Source: Bernardetiaceae bacterium (GTDB taxonomy: Bacteria; Bacteroidota; Bacteroidia; Cytophagales; Bernardetiaceae). Taken from it: a stretch of DNA of 10,584 nucleotides. The notes beneath the pieces are model-generated. The model did no database searches and was not told the origin of the DNA. It was given only the letters and a program-made list of their open reading frames with translations. The stretch spans positions 1-10,584 of the forward strand of contig JBHJNV010000034.1 of the NCBI GenBank assembly GCA_050330455.1, in the 5' to 3' direction. Positions 1 to 10,584 of this stretch are shown piece by piece (position 1 is the first letter of the stretch; every line of letters starts with the position of its first letter). The position numbers and the translations under genes were made by a program.

Positions 1-821
1 TTGATTTTTTTAATTTGATATAAGGGTTCTGCGGGTTTAGTTTCTTGTATTTTTACCCGATATTCAGGCTCAAAAATAATCTGCCTTAAACCTTCAAAAG
101 TTGGATTGGCTTTTATCCAAGTGAAATTACCTATTTCTTCTATTTTATGAGCATCAGAAGTATGCACAACAGATTTAGGAACAGCATTTTCATACCTTGA
201 TTTATCAAGAAAATGATTTCTATCTTGGCTACGCCCAAAGAAGAAATTTGCTTTTTTATCAAATATCTCAGCAATGGCAACACTTCTACCTTCTTTATTA
301 TTTGAGCGAAAACCACCGTAACCGTTTGGACAACAAACTATAAGATAGTCCTCATATTCTATAAAATCTTTTTGAAGTTGGTTTAATAAAGTTTCGTCAT
401 TTACAACAGATGTACTGAAGTCGTTGTTGCTTGTCAAATTATTACAATATGTATCTGTTTTAGTTTGCAACCTACCTAAAAAACTATGAATTGCAGTATT
501 ATCAACTCTATCAGGATTGAAAATGATATGCAAGTTGATATATTCACCACTCTTGTTAGGCTGTGCTATACGAAATTCCAAATTTGGCAAAACTAAGATG
601 TGATGCTGATTAAGCTTTGCCTTCACTGTGTTCAATTCATTTTCTGCAAAACGGAAGTAATTAGTCAAACCAATAACCCTAACTCCACTATCGACAATTC
701 TCTGACCCCAATTATCCCATTCATTATTGAATTGGTTGTTCAAGTGAGTCATTGGGCTATGCACATGCAAATCCCACTTTGCCCATTCAGAGCCTTTTGG
801 ATATGGATTGTATCTTGCCAT
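1..821 (-). CDS. N-terminal part of a PHP (polymerase/histidinol-phosphatase) phosphoesterase domain protein. Start codon at 821..819; the 3' end lies beyond the window. Possibly the PHP module of a TrlF-like SMC/AAA ATPase.
   Basis: Reverse-strand translation from the ATG at 821..819 gives MARYNPYPKGSEWAKWDLHVHSPMTHLNNQFNNEW..., uninterrupted to position 1 (~273 codons). PHP hallmarks are present: the DLHVHS first motif, a conserved His in ...YINLHIIFNPD..., and the terminal HTSDAHKIEEIG (SDAH) motif. An in-frame stop lies 4 codons upstream of the ATG. The gene sits in a markedly AT-rich block unlike the rest of the window. It is missing from the supplied ORF track only because it is open at the window edge. 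Confidence 0.7.
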   Translation of the reverse strand, partial: MARYNPYPKGSEWAKWDLHVHSPMTHLNNQFNNEWDNWGQRIVDSGVRVIGLTNYFRFAENELNTVKAKLNQHHILVLPNLEFRIAQPNKSGEYINLHIIFNPDRVDNTAIHSFLGRLQTKTDTYCNNLTSNNDFSTSVVNDETLLNQLQKDFIEYEDYLIVCCPNGYGGFRSNNKEGRSVAIAEIFDKKANFFFGRSQDRNHFLDKSRYENAVPKSVVHTSDAHKIEEIGNFTWIKANPTFEGLRQIIFEPEYRVKIQETKPAEPLYQIKKI

Positions 822-932
822 AGTTTTTTTGATTTACCTCTCACCCCAAAGCAAACATACTAAAAAACTACAGCAAACCAAAAACGCCCCTGCCCTTGCA
901 CAAAACCGCTCCATATTGCTTATCTTTGGCTG

Positions 933-1589
933 ATGAAACACGTTTCGCTTACCATCCAGGCGCCCTATACCACGTATCATGCCCTGACCCCATCCACGCG
1001 GCATATCTGGATGGCCTGTCATGGCTATGGCCAACTGGCGCGGCATTTTGTCCGTCGCTTTGATGCCCTGGAGCCACAGGAAAACTTCGTGATTGCGCCC
1101 CAGGGCTTGTCCCGTTTTTATCTCGACGACAAGTACCAGCACGTGGGTGCCTCCTGGATCACGCGGGAGGAGCGGGAGATGAGCCTCCAAAATATGTACA
1201 CTTACCTCAACGCCGTCTTTGCGGCCGAGACCGCAGAAGCCCCTGATACAGCAGGTCTTACGCTCTTTGGCTTCTCGCAGGGAGCGGCAGCCGTGATCCG
1301 CTGGGCCCTGGCGCACCAGGTGCCGTTTGAGCGGTTGTTTTTTTGGGCGGGTGGCTTCCCCGAGGAGATCACACCGCAGGATGTCCGCTACCTGAACACG
1401 GACGAGATCGAAGTAAACTTCTTTGTGGGCAGCGAAGACCCATTTTATACCCCCGAGACGCTCGAGCGGCAGATGTCTCTGTTGCAACGGGTCTTTCCGC
1501 AGGTGCGCGTGATTCCTTTTGAGGGCGCGCATGAGGTCAAGCGGGAGGTATTGGTACAGGTAGCAACGCGCCCGATGCTCTCGCGTTAG
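933..1589 (+). CDS. alpha/beta-fold hydrolase (phospholipase/carboxylesterase or FSH1-like serine hydrolase family)
   Basis: 218-aa ORF with ATG at 933. GFSQG nucleophile-elbow motif (GxSxG). N-terminal ...IWMACHGYGQ... hydrolase-core motif. C-terminal FEGAHEV consistent with a catalytic His. The overlapping 232-aa minus-strand ORF (834..1532) is taken as a shadow. Confidence 0.7.
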   Translation: MKHVSLTIQAPYTTYHALTPSTRHIWMACHGYGQLARHFVRRFDALEPQENFVIAPQGLSRFYLDDKYQHVGASWITREEREMSLQNMYTYLNAVFAAETAEAPDTAGLTLFGFSQGAAAVIRWALAHQVPFERLFFWAGGFPEEITPQDVRYLNTDEIEVNFFVGSEDPFYTPETLERQMSLLQRVFPQVRVIPFEGAHEVKREVLVQVATRPMLSR

Positions 1590-2134
1590 GCTTTCATTTT
1601 TTGGGCAAAGCTAAGGAGTGCCTGCGCAAAGGTTTCGATTTTAGAAAGAAAATCAGGGTTGATTAAAGCCCCCGTTTCGTCGATCTGTTGGGTGATCTGC
1701 CCACAGAGGAGCATCTGGGGTTGGGGATAGGCCTGCACGGCCAGGATGAGCTGTTGGAGTGCCAGGGCTGCCCGCATACCGCCCATCGCCCCCGTCGATG
1801 CTGTGGCAACGCCGATGGGTTTTCCGCCTAGCTCGTCCTTGCCCATACGATCAACGAATCCCTTGAGGGCAGAAGAGAAGCTACCGTTGTACTCTGGGCT
1901 GACCAAAATCACGGCATCGGCATTTTTTAGGTCTGTGCTGGCGGCGAGCAGTTCCGCTGATGGGTCTTCGAGTAACCGCAGGCGTTCTACGAAAGGAGGT
2001 AGGTCAAGGGCGGCTAAGTCGATCAGTTGTACCGATGTATCGGCTTGGTTTTTCAGATACTGCTCGAGAGCCAGTGCTAGGCGGTGGCTGTTGCGACCTG
2101 GACGGGTGCTGCCAGAGATGATGGCGATTTTCAT
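1586..2134 (-). CDS. NADPH-dependent FMN reductase family oxidoreductase (flavodoxin-like fold; SsuE/YieF/ArsH-type)
   Basis: 182 aa starting MKIAIISGSTRPGRNSHRLA..., followed by ...AVILVSPEYNGSFSSALKGFVDR.... This is the typical FMN_red signature (the S-x-R motif and the SPEYNGS loop). ATG confirmed at 2134..2132. Its 3' end overlaps the hydrolase stop by 4 nt (convergent). Confidence 0.85.
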   Translation of the reverse strand: MKIAIISGSTRPGRNSHRLALALEQYLKNQADTSVQLIDLAALDLPPFVERLRLLEDPSAELLAASTDLKNADAVILVSPEYNGSFSSALKGFVDRMGKDELGGKPIGVATASTGAMGGMRAALALQQLILAVQAYPQPQMLLCGQITQQIDETGALINPDFLSKIETFAQALLSFAQKMKA

Positions 2135-2181
2135 TTGGAACGATAATTGTTTTTTTTGAGGGAAAAAAAATAAAAAGACCT

Positions 2182-2724
2182 ATGAAAAAGTTGTGTGTAT
2201 TTGCCATGGCCTTCTTTTGGATTTGTTTTCAAGGACTTGCCCAACAGGTGATCCCCCTGGAAGAGAACCAATCATCCAATCAGGATGGTTTGTCGGTGGG
2301 CTTTTCGGTAACCAATGAACGCACCCAAAGCGCGGGCAAAGAAGAATTTTCACGGTACGAAATTACGGTTTATCTGACTAACCAAAGCGGTTGCCCAAAA
2401 ATTGTCTTGACCGGAACGGGCTTTCAGGGAGCTTTTGGGGGGAGTATCATGGATCCATCCGTTTTTGGGGTCTTTGATTGCATCAATGCTACGGGTCGTC
2501 GCATGACCTCCAAAAGTGCCGAAGTACGCGCCAACCAGTTTATTGTCCCCTTTGAGCGGCAAGATACCAACGCCGAAGGAAAAACGATCACGCGCACCGA
2601 GCGTGTCCAGGCAGGTTTTATTCTCCGCGATGGCGAGACCATCTCAACGGACATCATCGTTTTGGTGCCGCTCGGAGAACGCCCGAGGATACAAGCCCGC
2701 GTAACGGCATTCTCTAACCTATAA
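2182..2724 (+). CDS. hypothetical secreted protein with N-terminal signal peptide
   Basis: 180 aa beginning MKKLCVFAMAFFWICFQGLAQQ (hydrophobic signal peptide, likely AQQ cleavage region). ATG at 2182. No recognisable catalytic motif. The remainder has uniform coding-like composition. Confidence 0.55.
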   Translation: MKKLCVFAMAFFWICFQGLAQQVIPLEENQSSNQDGLSVGFSVTNERTQSAGKEEFSRYEITVYLTNQSGCPKIVLTGTGFQGAFGGSIMDPSVFGVFDCINATGRRMTSKSAEVRANQFIVPFERQDTNAEGKTITRTERVQAGFILRDGETISTDIIVLVPLGERPRIQARVTAFSNL

Positions 2725-2725
2725 G

Positions 2726-3538
2726 TTATTCATCTTCAATGATCTGTACGACACGTATCAGCGAGGAAGCACTAAAAATACCCAAACCGCCATTGCTGAT
2801 GTTGGTGCGTGGATTGACGGGTGGCGGCGAAAACAAACCACCGTCGTTGCCCGCCAGGCTCAACAGATCGCTATAATAATCGAAGACATCTTCATTGATC
2901 GAGTACTGCTCCAAAGCCACCGTATCGCCCAGATCGAAGGCGTAGGGAAGTTCTAGGTTTTCGATGTTGTCCTGGACAAAGCGATCATCGGCGAGCAAAA
3001 TATCATCGAAGCCATCAAATAGGCTGTCATTGAGATAGACCCTCCAGCGATAGAAGTTCTTTTCGTTGGGGGGTTCTTTGGCAAAAAAGTACAGGTAATA
3101 CCCGTCGTCTCGGAACGGCCGGCCGGCTACATAGCGCACCGTCAGGGAGTCGATTTGGGTAACGGGTAGGAGTTGGGAGCTAGCCCTAAAAAATTCTTCC
3201 TGGACTTGTACCGAAAGGCTATACGTGCGCCCGACCTCTCCCTTGAAGGCGGGGTCTGTGGGGACGTAAAAGCCCGGGCTGTCCTCCCGAAAGATCATTT
3301 CGTTGCCCGTATCGTCGCTTATACTCACCTGGGCCCCCGAGATGCGGGGGGCTTGCGTAGGGTTGTAGAAATCAAGAGATTGGGTAAGGATGACCCAGGA
3401 ATAGCCCACCGTATCCACGACCTGCCCTTGTATGACAACGAGCGGTTCCTCCATGCTGCGGAGGGGTAAGTCGATCACTTGTTCGCAAGCGGTGAGCAGG
3501 GTACCGATCATCAAAATCCATACAAAATAAATGCGCAT
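2726..3538 (-). CDS. DUF4249 family lipoprotein (Bacteroidota)
   Basis: 270 aa. Lipoprotein signal MRIYFVWILMIGTLLTAC (lipobox Cys). C-terminal ...NPRTNISNGGLGIFSASS... matches the conserved DUF4249 C-terminal G-L-G-x-F-x-A motif as I remember it. ATG at 3538..3536. Confidence 0.7.
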   Translation of the reverse strand: MRIYFVWILMIGTLLTACEQVIDLPLRSMEEPLVVIQGQVVDTVGYSWVILTQSLDFYNPTQAPRISGAQVSISDDTGNEMIFREDSPGFYVPTDPAFKGEVGRTYSLSVQVQEEFFRASSQLLPVTQIDSLTVRYVAGRPFRDDGYYLYFFAKEPPNEKNFYRWRVYLNDSLFDGFDDILLADDRFVQDNIENLELPYAFDLGDTVALEQYSINEDVFDYYSDLLSLAGNDGGLFSPPPVNPRTNISNGGLGIFSASSLIRVVQIIEDE

Positions 3539-3564
3539 CTGTTTTCTTGTTTTGATTACTCTTC

Positions 3565-3581
3565 TTACAAAGAGGCTTTGT
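3565..3581. repeat. perfect inverted repeat TACAAAG-agg-CTTTGTA in the divergent intergenic region upstream of the SIR2-like gene; candidate operator
   Basis: Read directly: tacaaag (3565-3571), agg (3572-3574), ctttgta (3575-3581); a 7-bp stem with a 3-nt loop. It lies ~65 bp upstream of the ATG at 3646. Confidence 0.45.
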
Positions 3582-3645
3582 AGAGCAAAAAGTTGCTTGA
3601 TGGTTCGTATTTTTTTTTTCGCTATCTTGCCTCAAATTATCATGT

Positions 3646-4752
3646 ATGCCCGTTAAGCCACCCGATCAAGTAAACTGGGATTTTATTGTAGAAACGATCC
3701 GTACCGAGCGTTGTGTGTTGATGCTAGGCCCTGAGGTGGCGCGTAATGCCGAGGGCTTATCGCTTTATCAGTCGCTCCTGGAAAGCCTCGACCTAAGCAA
3801 CCAGGCAAAGGTACGTTATTACAACGACGATGAGTTTTTTTTCTTTCGCGACCCTTTGGCCAAAACGAGGGCCGTTTTTGATATTCAGCAGTTTTATGCT
3901 CGGCATAGTCCCTCGCCGCTTTTTGAGCAAATTCTCCAAATTCCTTTCCATCTGTGTATCTCTGTTTCGCCGGACTTGATGCTGCGTCAGTCTTTTGAGC
4001 AGTACAACTTGCCCCATCGCTTCGACTACTACCGCAAGTACGAGAACCCCCAAGCGATCGAACGTCCTACGCAAGATTATCCCCTGATCTACAATCTCTT
4101 TGGTGCTATTGAGGATGATGAATCGCTGATCTTTACCCACGAAGACCTCTTCGAGTTTTTGTTCGCCATCCTGGGGGATCGGAAGCTACCACGCGGGCTG
4201 GAGAGCCAACTCCAAAGTGCCAAAAACTTTATTTTTTTGGGCTTTAAGTTCGATAAATGGTACGTTAAGTTGCTCTTGCGTTTGTTGAGTTTGCATACGG
4301 GAAACTTCTTGCGCTACGCTTCTTATAGCCAGGATTCGGTCGAGACGCTCAACTTTTGTATGGATCACTTTCGGATTGATTTCATTGACCTAAGCATGGA
4401 TGATTTTGTTCAGACCCTCTACGACCGCTGTCAGGAACGCGGGATGCTCCGCCCACTCTCGACGAGCGATACCGTACAAACGCCCTGGGAAATCATCCAG
4501 GGATACATCCGAAAAGACGAAGTGAAGGCGGCTTTGCTCAAAATCGAAAGCTACCTAGCTCCCCTGCCCCAGGAGGAGGAACTCCTCACGACGCTCACCC
4601 TGCTGATGAGCCGCTACAACCGCCTCCAGCGAAAGATCACCAATGGGGTCATCGACGAGGACGAATCCGAACGCCAACTCAACCGCATCAAACAAGATGT
4701 CCTTAGCCTCGGGGAAGCCCTCCAGGAAATACTTGAAGAACAGCAGCTATAG
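3646..4752 (+). CDS. SIR2_2-like (ThsA/DSR-type sirtuin-fold, putative NAD+-consuming effector) protein with a C-terminal alpha-helical effector-associated-domain-like module
   Basis: 368 aa with ATG at 3646. Motif matches to the SIR2_2 family, with the first two motifs in canonical order:
- N-terminal ...WDFIVETIRTERCVLMLGPEVA... corresponds to '...vvlFlGAGvS'.
- ...PLIYNLFGAIEDDESLIFTHEDLFEFL... corresponds to 'iyKLHGs.....lvlTeeDY..f'.
- ...NFIFLGFKFDKWYVKLLLR... corresponds to 'lLFiGySl.D..i..ll'.
The C-terminal ~90 aa (PWEIIQGYIRKDEVKAALLKIESYL...LLMSRYNRLQRKITNGVIDEDESERQLNRIKQDVLSLGEALQE) is an all-helical module. Its 'SRYNRLQRK..G.I..DE...E.NRI' pattern recalls the effector-associated domains of conflict-system effectors. 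Confidence 0.65.
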   Translation: MPVKPPDQVNWDFIVETIRTERCVLMLGPEVARNAEGLSLYQSLLESLDLSNQAKVRYYNDDEFFFFRDPLAKTRAVFDIQQFYARHSPSPLFEQILQIPFHLCISVSPDLMLRQSFEQYNLPHRFDYYRKYENPQAIERPTQDYPLIYNLFGAIEDDESLIFTHEDLFEFLFAILGDRKLPRGLESQLQSAKNFIFLGFKFDKWYVKLLLRLLSLHTGNFLRYASYSQDSVETLNFCMDHFRIDFIDLSMDDFVQTLYDRCQERGMLRPLSTSDTVQTPWEIIQGYIRKDEVKAALLKIESYLAPLPQEEELLTTLTLLMSRYNRLQRKITNGVIDEDESERQLNRIKQDVLSLGEALQEILEEQQL

Positions 4753-4757
4753 CCACC

Positions 4758-5132
4758 ATGGAAAGCACCTTGCATTTGGCAGATAACCTGCGTTGGCTGC
4801 GCCAGGAACACGACCTAACCCAGGATCAGCTGGCCCAGATACTCGACCTCAAGCGCAACACCATCACGGCTTATGAGAGCCAAAGAAGCCTACCGCCCCT
4901 GCCCATCTTGATTCGTTTGGCGGGATACTTTCAGGTGAGCATCGACCATCTCTTATTCTGGGACTACAAAGCCGATGCCCCCATAGATGATACACCTGCC
5001 GCTTCCGAACGCGAAACCTTGCGCCAGCACTACGAAGCCTTACAGATCGCGTACCTACGTCAGGAGATTCACTGCCGCCAGGAGATCATACGCCTCAAAG
5101 AAGAACTCCAACAACTCAAGGGCGATCTTTGA
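4758..5132 (+). CDS. XRE/Cro-C1-family helix-turn-helix transcriptional regulator with a C-terminal coiled-coil
   Basis: 124 aa. The ATG at 4758 lies 5 nt after the SIR2-like stop (TAG 4750-4752), so the two genes are probably co-transcribed. LRWLRQEHDLTQDQLAQILDLKRNTITAYESQRSLPPLPILIRLAGYFQVSIDHLLF is a textbook HTH_XRE. The C-terminus ETLRQHYEALQIAYLRQEIHCRQEIIRLKEELQQLKGDL has heptad-like coiled-coil character. Confidence 0.75.
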   Translation: MESTLHLADNLRWLRQEHDLTQDQLAQILDLKRNTITAYESQRSLPPLPILIRLAGYFQVSIDHLLFWDYKADAPIDDTPAASERETLRQHYEALQIAYLRQEIHCRQEIIRLKEELQQLKGDL

Positions 5133-5328
5133 GCGGGCAGGTATTGACCCCAATCAGGGTGTATAGCCCACAAAAGCGAACCGTCGCCGTGGCGGCCAGG
5201 GCAATGCCCCCAACCAAGACAACCCAGCCTAGGGTTCCGGCAACGACTCCACTGGCGTACAAGACCACCAAGATAAGGGCTACGGCGTAGCGGATCAGTC
5301 GGTCTATTTTTCCTACGTTTGTTTGCAT
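5116..5328 (-). CDS. DUF2892 (YgaP-like) small membrane protein
   Basis: 70 aa, MQTNVGKIDRLIRYAVALILVVL...TVRFCGLYTLIGVNTCP. It has two hydrophobic helices plus the conserved C-P/G-L-Y...G..TC motif of the DUF2892 family. ATG at 5328..5326. Its 3' end overlaps the HTH gene's 3' end by 17 nt (convergent). Confidence 0.65.
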   Translation of the reverse strand: MQTNVGKIDRLIRYAVALILVVLYASGVVAGTLGWVVLVGGIALAATATVRFCGLYTLIGVNTCPLKDRP

Positions 5329-5419
5329 GGCATGATTGTTTCAGAAATGGTTTAAGCGAAAGTACAAAAAAAATATGACTTACCCCAAAGACAGTCTGTA
5401 GGCCGCTTTGGCGGTTTGG

Positions 5420-6556
5420 TTATTCCACCATGAGCAGCGGCTGGGGCGTAAAGCAAAGCACAAAGACTACCAGAGCCAGCACACCCAACGCCTTCCTGAT
5501 CGGGCTAAGCGGAACAGACTCCTCTGCCCCCGGATGAGAGATACCCACCACACGCCCCAGCAAAAAACCAAACAACAGCCAGGCATGGTAGCCCTCAATG
5601 CCTGGAAACAAAGCCGCAATACCCCATTGGCACAAAACCAGCACCAGAGCCACCACCAAAGCCGCCTGCCAGTGCCGAAACTCACGCGCCCATACCCAGT
5701 ACAGATAGCCCACATACAAGATAAAGCCCGTCGGAGATTCCCATACATCGGATACCGAAAACAGCCCCAATCCCGCATAGCCCAAAAAGACAAAGAAAAA
5801 CAGCCGTGCAATACGCTGATGCCAGCGGTAGCCCACCAGCCCGTAAAGGACATGCCCGCCGTCGAGTTGGCCGATGGGCAGTAGGTTGAGGGCCGTAAAA
5901 AACAAAGCCAGATAACCGGCCAGCAAATACGGGTAGTGCATGATCTCGAAATCATTGGGGAGCAATGCCGGATCTGCGACCCAATATTTGAACGCCTCAA
6001 AAAGCAGATTTGTGCCCAGCCGAACGCCACCCTCGGGGGCATCCTGATACACGTGATCGGCATAAGCCAGACCATACTGGGCATACTCGGGATGAATCTC
6101 GAAGATATGCTCGGCGGGCGGCAAAAAAGTAAATCCGTACCACAACACACCCAATGCTACCACAAAGCCCGCTAGTGGCCCCGCAATCCCGACATCAAAA
6201 TACACCTTCCGAGACCATATCCGGCTCCTGATACGGATAAACGCGCCCATTGTCCCGATGGAAGGCGCACCCGCAAAAAGTGGTAAAAAGCCCAACCAAA
6301 GCGGAATGTAGTACGGCAAGCTGACCCGCAGCCGGTGGTATTGCGCCACAAAGTAATGCCCAAACTCATGTACGGTCAGGATGCCCAAAAAAGGGATCGA
6401 GTAATGTAGCCCATCCCAAAAGTGCGCCCACGTCAGGGCAGGTGAAACCCAAAAAAAAGGCCGCCCCCATATCCACTCTGCCCCCGCAAATGTCGTAGCA
6501 ATGAAGGTCAGGAGGAAGAGCAGGGGATGCAAAAGCAAGCGAAGCAAGGGGCGCAT
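5420..6556 (-). CDS. site-2 protease family (peptidase M50) intramembrane zinc metalloprotease
   Basis: HEFGHYFVA (HExxH) and ...NLLPIGQLDGGHVL... (the LDGG motif of M50), in a multi-pass hydrophobic protein. The ORF track begins at a GTG (6574..6572). The first ATG is at 6556..6554 (MRPLLRLLL...). I list the ATG; the GTG start is possible. Confidence 0.8.
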   Translation of the reverse strand: MRPLLRLLLHPLLFLLTFIATTFAGAEWIWGRPFFWVSPALTWAHFWDGLHYSIPFLGILTVHEFGHYFVAQYHRLRVSLPYYIPLWLGFLPLFAGAPSIGTMGAFIRIRSRIWSRKVYFDVGIAGPLAGFVVALGVLWYGFTFLPPAEHIFEIHPEYAQYGLAYADHVYQDAPEGGVRLGTNLLFEAFKYWVADPALLPNDFEIMHYPYLLAGYLALFFTALNLLPIGQLDGGHVLYGLVGYRWHQRIARLFFFVFLGYAGLGLFSVSDVWESPTGFILYVGYLYWVWAREFRHWQAALVVALVLVLCQWGIAALFPGIEGYHAWLLFGFLLGRVVGISHPGAEESVPLSPIRKALGVLALVVFVLCFTPQPLLMVE

Positions 6557-6570
6557 AGGGGGCGATGTTT

Positions 6571-7227
6571 TCACTTGGTCAGGATGTACATCTCCCGCTC
6601 GAGTCCCGTAGCAGAGCTATAAGGGCGTTGCTCGAGGGAGGAGAAGCCGGCCGCCTCAGACATCCGAGCCATATCTTCGGGATAGGGCATATAGCCCTCC
6701 AGGGTTCCCCACTCGGTTTCGACGCGGATGTATTTTCGGTCTATCTTTTTGCCGACGTATTTGATTTGATCGCGGGGTGCGTCGATGTATGCCTTGCCTT
6801 GTGGGTGGAGTTGGGAGTAGATGCGATGGAGGCAAAGCATTTGATCCTCGGGAGTTTGTTCGAGTATGCCTGACCAGAGCCACAAGACAGCATCGACCGC
6901 TGTGGGCAGTTGTAGGTCTCGGATGTCTTGTTGGATCGGGCTTACGGGGGGGTGAGTAGTTTGTTCTTCGATCAGTTGCAATAGATGGGGGATACGATCG
7001 ACGGCAAATATTTCTCCGGCGTAGCCCATCTCGAGCAGCCCCAGGACACAACGCCCATAGCCTGCCCCTAGCTCGGCGATGCTTTGGGTGTCCACCAAAT
7101 CAGGGAAGATCACTTGCAGGTCAGGGAGGGTATCAAAGCCCGTCAGTTGTGCCAGTTCATGGAACTTTTGGAGTTCCATTTTGCGGTAAAAGTCAAGGTT
7201 ATCTGCTCGGATGGTGGAATGCGTCAT
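6571..7227 (-). CDS. class I SAM-dependent methyltransferase
   Basis: ...IAELGAGYGRCVLGLLEMGYAGEIFAVDRIP... is motif I (E/DxGxGxG) followed by an acidic residue at the end of beta-2. The track start is a TTG at 7251..7249. ATG at 7227..7225 (MTHSTIRADNL...) is preferred. Stop TGA at 6573..6571. Confidence 0.7.
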   Translation of the reverse strand: MTHSTIRADNLDFYRKMELQKFHELAQLTGFDTLPDLQVIFPDLVDTQSIAELGAGYGRCVLGLLEMGYAGEIFAVDRIPHLLQLIEEQTTHPPVSPIQQDIRDLQLPTAVDAVLWLWSGILEQTPEDQMLCLHRIYSQLHPQGKAYIDAPRDQIKYVGKKIDRKYIRVETEWGTLEGYMPYPEDMARMSEAAGFSSLEQRPYSSATGLEREMYILTK

Positions 7228-7237
7228 GAAAGCAAAA

Positions 7238-7912
7238 TTACAAATTTTCAAAGAGGCGGCGTTTGAGCTGCTGAAATTCTTCTTCGGAGATTGTCCCTGC
7301 CTGGCGGAGTTCCATCAGTTCGTTGAGGCGATCCAGGGGGTCTTTGGCGGCGGTGGGTTGTACTTCTACCTCTACTTCGTCGGCCTCAGAAAACTCATCC
7401 TGGGCAGCCTTGCCCCGCTTGACAAACTCGTCCTGCATCTGTCGGGCAAACTGCTTGCCCTTCTCAAACTCCTGCTGATAAAAGCTCTTGACGGCTTCGG
7501 CATCGAAGTCCTCCAAAGTGCCGCCTTTCTCAAAATGCGTTACAAAAACACGCCCCGTCGCGTAGGTAGAAGCCCCCGAAAGGATCGCCATACTGACCCC
7601 GCCCACGACCGCACCCACGCCCGGAATCATCTTGATTGCCTGTGATCCCAACTTAGGCAACGCACTGCCAGCCAGTGTATTGAGCCAGGATTCTAGGTTG
7701 CGACGACGAAAATCAACGCCATAGATTTTACACAACTCATGTACCATATCTATTTGGATCGCCGTAACGGCTACCATATCGGCCAGTGGGATCGGAATCA
7801 AGCCGGCCCCCAACGACCAACCTACCGATCGCTCCACGATACGCTCTGCCCGCTCGTTATCGGTATCCATGCCCATTTTTTCCTTGAACTTATAGAAGAG
7901 ATAATCTAACAT
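7238..7912 (-). CDS. DUF697/EcsC-like domain protein with C-terminal SHOCT domain
   Basis: 224 aa with ATG at 7912..7910. The central ...GAGLIPIPLADMVAVTAIQIDMVHELCKIYGVDF... resembles the DUF697/EcsC conserved core. The C-terminus DPLDRLNELMELRQAGTISEEEFQQLKRRLF is a clear SHOCT (short C-terminal domain) motif. The acidic linker EADEVEVEV precedes it. Confidence 0.5.
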   Translation of the reverse strand: MLDYLFYKFKEKMGMDTDNERAERIVERSVGWSLGAGLIPIPLADMVAVTAIQIDMVHELCKIYGVDFRRRNLESWLNTLAGSALPKLGSQAIKMIPGVGAVVGGVSMAILSGASTYATGRVFVTHFEKGGTLEDFDAEAVKSFYQQEFEKGKQFARQMQDEFVKRGKAAQDEFSEADEVEVEVQPTAAKDPLDRLNELMELRQAGTISEEEFQQLKRRLFENL

Positions 7913-7932
7913 TGTCTTTATACAGATGATTC

Positions 7933-8050
7933 ATAATGGTAACGGATCAAGGCAAATAATGGATTAGAAAAAAGATATAAAACCCGAAAAAGTTTTTTGA
8001 CTGCCGTATTTTTTGTATCTTTCCCAATCCCTTGACCGTAATCCATTGTA
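7933..8050. promoter_or_regulatory. AT-rich divergent promoter region containing three copies of an A(T/C)AATGG motif (two direct, one inverted)
   Basis: ataatggt at 7933-7940. ataatggatta at 7956-7966. The inverted copy taatccattgt is at 8039-8049 (aatggatta 7958-7966 vs taatccatt 8039-8047). Located between the divergent starts at 7912 (-) and 8075 (+). Confidence 0.35.
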
Positions 8051-8074
8051 TTCACCGCCTAGCCCTTTGCGTTT

Positions 8075-8716
8075 ATGTCCGCCAAAAAAGATACCCAGCC
8101 TGTGCGTCGTCGGCCGCTCAATGCCCTCCAACACATCGAAAAACAACATCCCTATGTGGTGATGCTCTACGTGGGCATGATTGGCATTTCAGCCATGTTT
8201 TTGTTTTTGTTATTTTCATTTCGTTTTTATGAAATTCAGGAGGAGGTCTTGGCGCGGTTTCGCTTTCCGACGGGCTTTGTCATCAGCACGTGTTTGCTCC
8301 TGATGAGCAGCCTAACGATTCATCAAGCGAAGTTGTCGTTTTATGAAGATGATTTTTTGCAGATGCGGCGTTATCTCCTGATTACTTTGGGCTTGGGTAT
8401 TGGTTTTTCGGTTTGTCAAGTGGTGGGTTGGTATGAGTTGCAGGCCGCTGGGCTGGCTTGGGCAAGCCAAAACTCTACAACGTATCTCTATTTGGTCTCG
8501 GGGCTACACGTCTTGCACCTCCTGGGAGGCTTGGCTTTTGTGGGGGTGCAGGCATATAGCATCCATCAAAAGTGCCACGATCCGGTAAAAGTGTTGATTG
8601 CCGTAACCAACCCTCACGAAAAAATGAAGCTAACCTTGATGACGCTCTACTGGCACTTCATGGATGGGCTTTGGGTGGTACTGTTTTTGTATTTCGTGAT
8701 GGCGTTTTTGTTTTAA
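8075..8716 (+). CDS. cytochrome c oxidase subunit III family membrane protein (stand-alone short form)
   Basis: 213 aa, polytopic. C-terminal ...LMTLYWHFMDGLWVVLFLYFVMAF... matches the hallmark YWHFVD..W..LF segment of heme-copper oxidase subunit III. ATG at 8075. No subunit I/II genes are in the window. Confidence 0.6.
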   Translation: MSAKKDTQPVRRRPLNALQHIEKQHPYVVMLYVGMIGISAMFLFLLFSFRFYEIQEEVLARFRFPTGFVISTCLLLMSSLTIHQAKLSFYEDDFLQMRRYLLITLGLGIGFSVCQVVGWYELQAAGLAWASQNSTTYLYLVSGLHVLHLLGGLAFVGVQAYSIHQKCHDPVKVLIAVTNPHEKMKLTLMTLYWHFMDGLWVVLFLYFVMAFLF

Positions 8717-8726
8717 TGGCTCCTTG

Positions 8727-10580
8727 ATGCGGATACTTTTTTGGCTTAGTCTGATTATTGCTTACCCCTTGATGGGTCAGGAGGCTTGTTTTGATGTCAA
8801 TATCACGACTGGATGCGCTCCTTTGACGGTGCAAGTCATTGATTGCTCGGGGGCAGCGGCGGGCAATATCCTCTACGACTACGGCAACGGCAACAAGGTT
8901 ACCCAAACGACATTTACTTACACCCAGGCCGGCACATACCCCATCACGCAGTACGTAGGTTCGGGGGCGGGCGGGGATTCGCTACGCAAAGAAAACCTCA
9001 TCGTCGTCAGGGAACCTCAACCGATTGCCTTTGATCTGCTGCCTTGCCCAGACCAGGGGCTGCTCTTGATCCTGACCGACACCACCCGAGATACCTACAC
9101 CATCGACCTCGGCGATGGCAACCGAGCCACCCTCAACGCCACCGATACCCTCATCCACTACTATCCCGATACCCAGCTACGCAACATCCGAGTACAGGGT
9201 ACGCTCCCCAACTGCCCCTCCACCGATACCGTTTTTGCCCCGCAACCCAACCCAGCCACCATCACCATCGACCGCCTCGAAGTCCTGGATGACCAACGCC
9301 TACAACTGACCCTCTCCCAAACCCCAGCCGTAGCAGACTACCAACTCGAGCAACAAACCGACAACGGGGCTTTTGTTGTCCTGCAAGACCTCCCCATCGG
9401 AACAGAGACCCTGATCCTGGATGGACTAGACCTCCCCAACCGCAGCTACAGCTACCGCATCAGTCAAACCAACCTTTGCACCGGTGGCCGTACCAGCGAT
9501 CAGCCCATACGTACCACCTACGCCCGCCTCACCGTCGGGAACGGCAACCTCGGTCTCCAATGGACGGCCCAGCCCCTGGATAGCACCCAGTTTGAGGGTT
9601 ACCAAATCACCAAAGACGGCAATGACTTCATCACGCTCCGCGACCCCCGCACCACAACCGCCGTGGATGGCGACGTGCGTTGCCGCAGGCGATACTGTTA
9701 TCGCATCACGGCCACGCTCACCGGCGGACGGCAGTCGGTTTCGCAGGAGGTCTGTGCCGATGCCCAACTCACCCGCAGCCTACGCCCACCGGACTCCCTC
9801 CGCGTAACGGTCAATCGCGCCAACCAAATCGAACTTACCTGGGGTAGCCTCCTCGATTCACTCTTTAACCGGATGCGCTTCACCCGCCGCGATTCCGTCG
9901 GTATCGACACCCTCACCGGCAACGACAAAGCGGCATACATCGACTTTGGGGCCAACCCCAACGCACAAGTCTTTTGCTATCAGGTAGGCTATCAGGATTT
10001 TTGTGGCAACCAGTCCACTTTTAGTGCTGCCGTATGTCCGATCCGCTTGCAGGTAACGACGGATTCGCTGCGTTTTGATCTTCGGTGGTCTGCCTATCAG
10101 GGGTCTTTTGAACCGCTGACCTACTACCTGCTCAAGTTGGACGAAGAGAGAAATGTACTTGATTCGATTCCGGTGAGTAGTTTTCGCTTTGGTGAGCAGA
10201 TCGCCGATCAGAGCCGGCAGGTGTTGCGCTTTCAAGTCGTGGCCGTGGGCAGCCAAACCGGCTTTGCGTATGCCTCCAACAGCTTGTTGGTGCGTCTGCC
10301 CTCCAGGATGCTCATCGCCGATGCCTTTACGCCCAACGGCGACGGACTCAACGACACCTTCGGCGGCGTAGGACGCTTCATCGAGACCTACGAACTACGC
10401 ATCTTTAATGCCCTCGGCAATCCCATTTTTTACAGCGACAACCTAGAAACGCGCTGGGATGGCACCCGCAACAACGGAGAAGCCTTGCCAGCAGGTGTTT
10501 ATTTTTTTCAGTTGCGGGCCACCGATCAGATCGGGCGCACCTACAACATCCGCAACACCGTAACTTTGATTCGGCGATAA
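8727..10580 (+). CDS. T9SS cargo protein with gliding-motility-associated C-terminal domain (CHU_C / T9SS type B sorting domain). N-terminal signal peptide and PKD/Fn3-like beta repeats.
   Basis: The C-terminal ~90 aa LIADAFTPNGDGLNDTFGGVGRFIETYELRIFNALGNPIFYSDNLETRWDGTRNNGEALPAGVYFFQLRATDQIGRTYNIRNTVTLIRR is the canonical CHU_C sorting domain: FTPNGDGxND..., the WDG and GxY motifs, and ...VTLIR at the end. The track starts at a TTG (8724). The ATG at 8727 (MRILFWLSLIIAYPLMGQ, signal peptide) is preferred. Stop TAA at 10578-10580. Confidence 0.85.
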   Translation: MRILFWLSLIIAYPLMGQEACFDVNITTGCAPLTVQVIDCSGAAAGNILYDYGNGNKVTQTTFTYTQAGTYPITQYVGSGAGGDSLRKENLIVVREPQPIAFDLLPCPDQGLLLILTDTTRDTYTIDLGDGNRATLNATDTLIHYYPDTQLRNIRVQGTLPNCPSTDTVFAPQPNPATITIDRLEVLDDQRLQLTLSQTPAVADYQLEQQTDNGAFVVLQDLPIGTETLILDGLDLPNRSYSYRISQTNLCTGGRTSDQPIRTTYARLTVGNGNLGLQWTAQPLDSTQFEGYQITKDGNDFITLRDPRTTTAVDGDVRCRRRYCYRITATLTGGRQSVSQEVCADAQLTRSLRPPDSLRVTVNRANQIELTWGSLLDSLFNRMRFTRRDSVGIDTLTGNDKAAYIDFGANPNAQVFCYQVGYQDFCGNQSTFSAAVCPIRLQVTTDSLRFDLRWSAYQGSFEPLTYYLLKLDEERNVLDSIPVSSFRFGEQIADQSRQVLRFQVVAVGSQTGFAYASNSLLVRLPSRMLIADAFTPNGDGLNDTFGGVGRFIETYELRIFNALGNPIFYSDNLETRWDGTRNNGEALPAGVYFFQLRATDQIGRTYNIRNTVTLIRR

Positions 10581-10584
10581 AAAA

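Follow-up and report, generated by a model that had tools for sequence, protein, structure and literature searches.

What does the low-GC left end of contig JBHJNV010000034.1 encode, and how did it come to lie beside the higher-GC sequence that follows it? The contig belongs to assembly GCA_050330455.1 of a Bernardetiaceae bacterium, and the whole stretch analysed here, positions 1 to 10,584 of its forward strand, is called the window. A preliminary description of these 10,584 nucleotides had read the left end as the right-hand edge of a horizontally acquired element, cut within a gene for a TrlF-like protein that joins a PHP phosphoesterase domain to an ATPase. We compared the window with two sister assemblies from the same species: L001 (GCA_964537755.1), in which the region closes a 183-kb contig, and L002 (DAISIL010000002.1, Bernardetiaceae bacterium), in which it closes one of 116.6 kb. 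The left end carries the 5' part of a TrlF-family gene, and near-identical genomes carry other genes at the same place. With a probability of roughly 0.78, we read the gene as low-GC accessory cargo in a strain-variable slot, encoding an anti-phage nuclease-ATPase that would work like a one-chain SbcCD / Mre11-Rad50.

The guanine plus cytosine (GC) content was 0.339 in positions 1-821, 0.414 in the intergenic positions 822-932 and 0.528 in 933-10584. In intervals of 200 nt it stayed at 0.31-0.36 until about position 700, was 0.40-0.455 over 600-1000 and reached at least 0.545 from 901. Intervals of 821 nt to the right of 932 had a minimum of 0.445, a mean of 0.526 and a standard deviation of 0.036, which places 1-821 at z = -5.1, and intervals of 500 nt right of the junction ranged from 0.44 to 0.61. 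The profile across the junction showed a sharp break, and the compositional contrast in the preliminary description was borne out; its figure of 55-60% for the sequence to the right was somewhat too high, the true mean being 52.8%. The left end is occupied by a minus-strand open reading frame (ORF), which starts with an ATG at 821-819, four codons after an in-frame stop, and runs uninterrupted through 273 codons until the window end truncates it. Its GC content at third codon positions was 0.271, whereas every one of the window's 12 other genes had a value of 0.54-0.71, and its translation contains GSEWAKWDLHVHSP and HTSDAH. An Rfam scan of the window found no RNA family.

The translation matched the NCBIfam model NF045780 (TrlF family AAA-like ATPase; curated cutoff 350 bits) with residues 9-264 on model positions 1-278 of 944 (E 8.7e-56, 190.2 bits). 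The window gene is another member of this known and annotated family, and the TrlF-like identity first proposed for it is upheld by a match that begins at model position 1. The family is named after the Photorhabdus temperature-restriction locus trlR-trlF-trlG, where trlF is the large gene and carries the annotation 'histidinol phosphatase'; that locus varies between strains and is present too on the Yersinia ruckeri plasmid pYR3 (PMC7554251). A homologue search with the window head returned 2397 cluster representatives at E <= 0.001, the best 150 of which were mostly 850-1000 amino acids (aa) long and matched at their N-terminus. The closest among the relatives listed was P0065, the TrlF family ATPase of Rhodoflexus caldus (878 aa, 85% identity). 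The parts of the gene that lie in the window are as follows.

1..821, minus strand: 5' part of the TrlF-family gene, codons 1-273 (PHP plus SMC/Rad50-like ABC ATPase), ended by the contig end; from translation, NF045780 and 85% identity to the P0065 N-terminus
766..821, minus strand: codons 1-19 (MARYNPYPKGSEWAKWDLH), common to the L002 allele; from alignment with L002
108..785, minus strand: PHP phosphoesterase domain, about residues 13-238; from the AlphaFold2 model, Foldseek and invariant columns
120..765, minus strand: PHP-core segment, codons about 20-234, with the other head subtype in L002; from blastn
1..119, minus strand: conserved post-PHP linker (WIKANPTFEGLRQIIFEPEYRVKIQETKPAEPLYQIKKI), 100% identical to L002 693-811, where the window contig ends; from alignment

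An AlphaFold2 model of the fragment, built with 31 homologues, had a predicted local distance difference test score (pLDDT) of 91 and a predicted template modelling (pTM) score of 0.90. In a Foldseek search of the PDB with this model, the top 27 matches were all of the PHP family (probability 1.00, TM about 0.45-0.53), among them the PHP domain of Pol III alpha, TM0559 and RNase AM, which upholds the PHP fold described for the head. The G-S-x-W-x-K-W segment singled out in the preliminary description extends to G-S-x-W-x-K-W-D-L-H-x-H and is invariant or nearly invariant in the family: G10, S11, W13, K15, W16, D17, L18, H19 and H21, together with E82, D223 and H225, were invariant or nearly so, and H98 was nearly invariant. 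Judged by the order of the motifs, H19, H21, E82, H98, D223 and H225 are candidate metal ligands. Motif 2 reads TNY in the window head where canonical PHP domains have 'DH', while the L002 head has the canonical TDHH; motif 4 of the window head has Cys instead of His.

An ATPase part had been predicted beyond position 1, and it can be seen by proxy in the continuation of L002 and in full-length relatives. Extending leftwards through L002, we found 692 nt more past the 119 identical nucleotides, encoding a Walker A motif (GGRGTGKST) and coiled-coil-like helices; the 498-aa L002 fragment scored 268 bits on NF045780. The relatives P0065 (85% identity), P0066 (69%) and P0067 (60%) matched the model end to end with 484, 528 and 650 bits. 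In P0065 numbering, the residues of the ATPase that are invariant in the family are G317, G318, G322 and K323 of Walker A, Q380 of the Q-loop, S765 and G767 of the signature, D788 of Walker B (E789 being nearly so), D795 of the D-loop and H821 of the H-loop. A full-length model of P0065 (pLDDT 87.5) contains, besides the PHP head, an ATPase head that is split and long helices amounting to about 250 residues, and its nearest solved folds are the heads of MukB, Rad50, JetC, SMC and RecN. A sequence search of solved structures with a full-length relative returned generic ABC-transporter ATPases only, with no TrlF or Ppl structure among them. Read from these relatives, the complete window protein would be about 880 aa long, with the PHP head followed by the conserved linker and a two-lobed SMC/Rad50-like ABC ATPase split by a coiled coil of about 250 residues.

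Comparison of the three assemblies placed the right boundary of this cargo at the start codon. The features at and beyond the boundary are as follows.

818..830: breakpoint between the shared flank and alternative cargo (TrlF-like / gajA), within AAATCAAAAAAA[C/A]TATG on the coding strand; from three-way register alignment
824..932: intergenic region common to all three assemblies, with one difference at 845; from alignment
933..1589, plus strand: alpha/beta-hydrolase gene (Abhydrolase_2/FSH1-like), the first conserved gene of the flank, divergent; from Pfam

Over 824-10584 the window differed from L001 at 9 positions and from L002 at 19 (about 99.8-99.9% identity), and in the hydrolase gene identity among the three was about 99.1-99.4%, with 6 and 4 differences over its 657 nt. 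Left of 823 the L001 sequence is unrelated to that of the window. Its ORF, starting from the same ATG, is the Gabija gene gajA (PADLOC E 2.8e-172; Pfam AAA_15 plus OLD-like TOPRIM; GC 0.30), with the GajA family model aligned from its position 1. In L002 codons 1-19 are shared with the window, a different PHP core follows, and identity returns at 100% over window positions 1-119; blastn found no similarity between window 120-765 and L002 812-1439. The slot is strain-variable and holds alternative defence cargo beside a conserved flank. As the preliminary description had it, the composition does switch near the start codon, with the two sister assemblies placing the break at 818-830; its view that the cargo was acquired is supported by the near-identical genome carrying gajA at the same slot.

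The L002 gene is an inter-subtype recombinant because its head is of the P0295 type while its body is P0065-like; the L002 head was 57-62% identical to second-subtype (P0295-type) heads, the bodies of which were only 35-38% identical to the L002 body, and that body was 87% identical to P0065. The window allele, 83% identical to P0065 in the head and 92% in the tail, is by the same comparison the congruent one. Five of the 19 differences between the window and L002 fall within 43 nt, at 5813-5855 in an M50 peptidase gene, and this cluster may mark a short stretch exchanged by recombination, the flank being near-identical elsewhere. The window contig ends exactly 119 nt into the segment that is 100% identical to L002, a stop that would represent a branch of the assembly graph, with both PHP-head alleles apparently coexisting in the source sample.

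Of the slot's boundaries, only the right one was observed. The preliminary description had suggested looking for an empty site next to the hydrolase gene, and none was found in a hydrolase scan of species-representative genomes, which returned one conspecific locus (L002) and two distant homologues (33-38% identity, not used for synteny). The exact 28-nt pattern of the shared leader had 0 matches in metagenomes, and protein scans for further states of the slot gave 0 in metagenomes and 0 in viral contigs. An exact look-up with the FMN-reductase returned the L001 contig only, plus a 3.9-kb Logan contig that ends inside the hydrolase gene.

We propose a defence role for the window gene because its slot is allelic with Gabija gajA and its family is related to Ppl, a validated anti-phage but uncharacterised single-gene system of ATPase plus PHP (PMC11482910). 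That the window gene and Gabija are interchangeable at one chromosomal position in a single species is circumstantial evidence for an immune role. Because the PHP head can change from one subtype to another with the ATPase body retained, we argue that the two parts are separable modules, the head an effector and the body a sensor; the swap that nature has made in L002 agrees with an effector that can be replaced on an unchanged sensor body. By analogy with SbcCD and Mre11-Rad50, and from the order of the domains, we infer the DNA substrate and the division of labour as follows. DNA would be bound by the ABC/coiled-coil body, which would use the binding and hydrolysis of ATP to recognise or clamp a feature of foreign DNA; the PHP head would cut phosphodiester bonds in a metal-dependent manner, and the protein might cooperate with the product of a downstream gene outside the window. 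Since the closest relatives have a methyltransferase as partner, some members of the family at least may recognise self by methylation.

Several points weigh against this interpretation. Only 273 of about 880 codons lie within the window, and the rest of the allele may be truncated or disrupted. The fragment's score falls below the NF045780 cutoff, a low score being expected of a fragment that is 29% of the model, and a Pfam search gave no PF02811 match for the left ORF at E <= 0.01. With 'NY' in place of 'DH', the catalytic competence of the window PHP head would not be assured. There is no tRNA in the window, no integrase among its genes and no convincing flanking repeat at the junction. Our literature search found no experiment on any TrlF-family protein in phage defence, and the Photorhabdus temperature-restriction screen collected no mutations in trlF (PMC7554251). 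All three assemblies are metagenome-derived, and the three contigs all end 0.8-1.8 kb into the cargo, L001 and L002 with 10-N scaffold gaps within it.

The last of these points raises the question of whether the low-GC end is a chimeric contig tip, joined to a Bernardetiaceae flank by the metagenome assembler. Coverage of L002 is only 5.3x, and the place where the window contig stops, exactly 119 nt into a shared segment, is typical of a graph branch. Contig breaks are also a product of strain-variable loci, however, and the three separate assemblies have low-GC cargo at the same nucleotides, with the junction between flank and cargo gap-free in each. Each cargo begins with a complete N-terminus, the TrlF and GajA models both being matched from position 1, and an A-rich, Bacteroidota-like leader precedes both the TrlF-like and the gajA genes. 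The closest TrlF relative comes from Rhodoflexus caldus, which we take to be of a genus related to the host. We consider a chimera very improbable. Still less credible, to the point of being negligible, is the idea that the ORF encodes a housekeeping PHP enzyme (a histidinol phosphatase, for example, or a PHP associated with PolX or Pol III) and belongs to ordinary core genome of low GC. Family members have been annotated as 'histidinol phosphatase' (PMC7554251) and the structural neighbours of the head include the Pol III alpha PHP domain, but NCBIfam and Pfam gave nothing for HisJ/K or polymerase families, and the TrlF match runs from model position 1. Moreover, the PHP part is continued by an ATPase in L002 and in every full-length relative, and genomes that are about 99.8-99.9% identical in the flank lack the segment or have another in its place. 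Named in the preliminary description as what would overturn its reading, this housekeeping alternative is effectively refuted.

The gene could also be real without serving defence: its product might take part in DNA repair or growth control, in the manner of SbcCD/RecN, or in a temperature-restriction module as in Photorhabdus, its place in this slot being incidental. Genetic work on the locus that gave the family its name is confined to temperature-restricted growth (PMC7554251), relatives are labelled 'DNA repair protein' or 'SbcC/Rad50' in the sources, and the fold is closest to Rad50, MukB and RecN. Such a role nevertheless seems unlikely to us. The slot is allelic with gajA, the family is homologous to validated Ppl, and its low-GC genes are patchily distributed, with plasmids and a conjugative element among their locations; TrlF genes have a methyltransferase or a helix-turn-helix (HTH) gene as partner, and the swapping of heads between alleles is typical of arms-race genes. 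The Photorhabdus phenotype, toxicity on stress, itself resembles that of an auto-immune defence system.

Having preferred anti-phage cargo, we can ask how it came to the slot. The preliminary reading of a right-hand edge of an acquired element held in part: with gajA in the same slot, the acquired and defensive character of the cargo is supported; the edge of a mobile element is one possible reading, and no integrase, tRNA or flanking direct repeat was found. A recombination hotspot fits as well as the edge of a mobile element. The TrlF-like and gajA cargos share their upstream region. It contains two -7-like TAnnTTTG motifs: the minus strand has TATGTTTG at 859-852, which lies 31 nt upstream of the ATG, and the plus strand has TATCTTTG at 921-928; such motifs are not enriched in the window (9 found, 6 expected), and from their position and form these two would be Bacteroidota-type promoters. 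A 15-nt inverted repeat also lies here, at 815-829 and 862-876 (87% complementary, 32-nt spacer), its left arm over the TrlF start codon and leader, and it could hide the start codon in a longer transcript. This repeat and the att-like repeats at the junction are short and A/T-rich, and we treated them as chance.

A junction so precisely at the start codon is explained economically by recombination between short homologies, in the A-rich leader and at conserved motifs, and then by homologous exchange through the flanks within the population. A more elaborate idea, which we hold to be rather improbable, is that the slot is a dedicated 'expression socket': a promoter and leader belonging permanently to the host (824-932) would stand before promoterless defence genes that are swapped at the start codon, and the nuclease head would in turn be an exchangeable cassette between two joints that encode conserved motifs, GSEWAKWDLH and WIKANPTFEGL. 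This would be an integron-like logic without a recognisable integrase and, if true, defence genes in Bacteroidota would be swapped as modules on two levels. Short-homology recombination is the simpler account and fits equally well.

The likenesses of the window gene to characterised systems are partial. It shares with Photorhabdus TrlF a head whose GSxWxKWDLHxH aligns from model position 1; close full-length relatives pass the model's cutoff, and the genes are large (about 870-940 aa), patchy and strain-variable. In Photorhabdus, however, a TrlR-like regulator lies upstream, whereas here a 111-nt intergenic region and the divergent hydrolase gene are found, with no HTH. The Photorhabdus partner TrlG (AlbA_2/HATPase_c_4) lies downstream, and the closest relatives of the window gene have N6_Mtase or no partner there. 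The host is one of the Bacteroidota rather than the Gammaproteobacteria, and only 29% of the protein lies in the window. Ppl (NF042955 / PADLOC PDLC02208) follows the same logic of PHP head plus ABC-type ATPase; full-length relatives of the window protein scored 95-130 bits on its model, and the alternative L002 head aligned over residues 10-321. The window fragment reached 30.3 bits (20.9 in PADLOC) through linker residues 217-273 only, far below the curated cutoff of 1000 bits. We know of no mechanism established for Ppl itself.

SbcCD / Mre11-Rad50 combines, as the window family does, an SMC-like ABC ATPase with a coiled-coil insertion and a metal-dependent phosphoesterase acting on DNA. 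The phosphoesterase there is a separate calcineurin-fold Mre11/SbcD subunit, whereas here the PHP domain is fused in cis and the coiled coil is much shorter (about 250 residues in total); the likeness is one of working principle and not of nuclease homology. GajA, found in the near-identical genome in the same slot and from the same start codon, is also an ABC-type ATPase fused to a nuclease, but it has an N-terminal ATPase and a C-terminal TOPRIM domain and no sequence relationship to the window gene. The slot itself has sharp boundaries, alternative cargo, conserved flanks and low GC in common with the defence hotspots of P2/P4-like elements and with chromosomal defence islands. In contrast to the P2/P4-like hotspots, no phage, satellite or integrase context is visible here, and the single boundary seen lies at the start codon, so that the cargo uses the upstream region of the flank.

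TrlF genes were low-GC (0.25-0.34) in every host examined. The genes found beside them are as follows.

R. caldus (L006) 2785-4794 and L007 3043-5019: N6-adenine methyltransferase gene directly downstream, about 660 aa, with a specificity-like C-terminus
L005: no partner gene
Compostibacter, inside a CTnDOT-type conjugative element: HTH gene upstream
Helicobacter pylori chromosome, L016 4679-8625: DUF2130 gene (about 426 aa) directly upstream
Lactococcus lactis phage-resistance plasmid pNP40, L013 4668-8538: DUF2130 gene (about 426 aa) directly upstream

The methyltransferase genes of L006 and L007, the two closest relatives with downstream sequence, begin 2-4 nt after the TrlF gene and encode gamma-class enzymes with a type-I-specificity-like C-terminus; PADLOC assigned them to MTase_II/MTase_I, with matches to mad2 and mad5. 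TrlF and methyltransferase make up a two-gene module resembling restriction-modification. The DUF2130-TrlF pairing is conserved across phyla (pNP40 and H. pylori), and we found no description of the pair. The pNP40 gene is not one of the newly named lactococcal systems Rhea, Aristaios and Kamadhenu, which are small unrelated proteins. Full-length TrlF-family genes are found on seven plasmid records at >=80% coverage, and one Microcystis phage record had a match (61% coverage, 30.5% identity).

Assemblies often break around the TrlF gene, as expected of repeat-flanked or strain-variable cargo. The R. caldus pair stands alone on a 5,027-nt contig (L006), and the L005 contig starts 50 nt upstream of its TrlF gene. 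P0213, a TrlF relative in another organism that is 72% identical to the L002 body, lacks the PHP head, and three independent metagenome contigs end at its PHP/ATPase boundary (L010 1-122, L011 1-107, L012 1-104). We rejected a PHP-head polymorphism at this locus: judged by eye, what lies upstream is the end of an IS3-type transposase gene oriented the other way, which would make this an insertion of an insertion sequence (IS), with contigs that end in the repeat. An additional AIG2/GGACT-like domain (PF13772, PF06094) is present at the N-terminus of P0226 and P0228. NCBI labels many of the family's H. pylori members (860-875 aa) 'gamma-glutamylcyclotransferase', probably a propagated misnomer.

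The window holds a further locus at 3646-5132 on the plus strand, where a 368-aa protein with SIR2_2 and EAD11 (effector-associated domain 11) is followed after 5 nt by a 124-aa HTH_3 protein. PADLOC gave this pair weak LmuA/LmuB and HTH_VI/RmrA-like matches, and it is conserved in all three assemblies; the local GC content dips to 0.44-0.49. It is probably the first defence-like locus to which the preliminary description alluded when it called the left end a second one. Just past the right end of the window, L001 11605-12601 encodes NTase_sub_bind and NTP_transf_2 proteins (an MNT/HEPN-like toxin-antitoxin pair), then an HNH_2 protein, and because of these the neighbourhood can be said to hold several conflict-type genes.

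Taken on its own, the locus is in our view real but fairly ordinary strain-variable anti-phage cargo, and it alters no concept in the field. TrlF-type PHP-ATPases are numerous, as the count of cluster representatives for the window head alone indicates, and are named automatically by NCBI. The 85%-identical gene of Rhodoflexus caldus, which adjoins a methyltransferase gene, offers a tractable experimental entry to the family.

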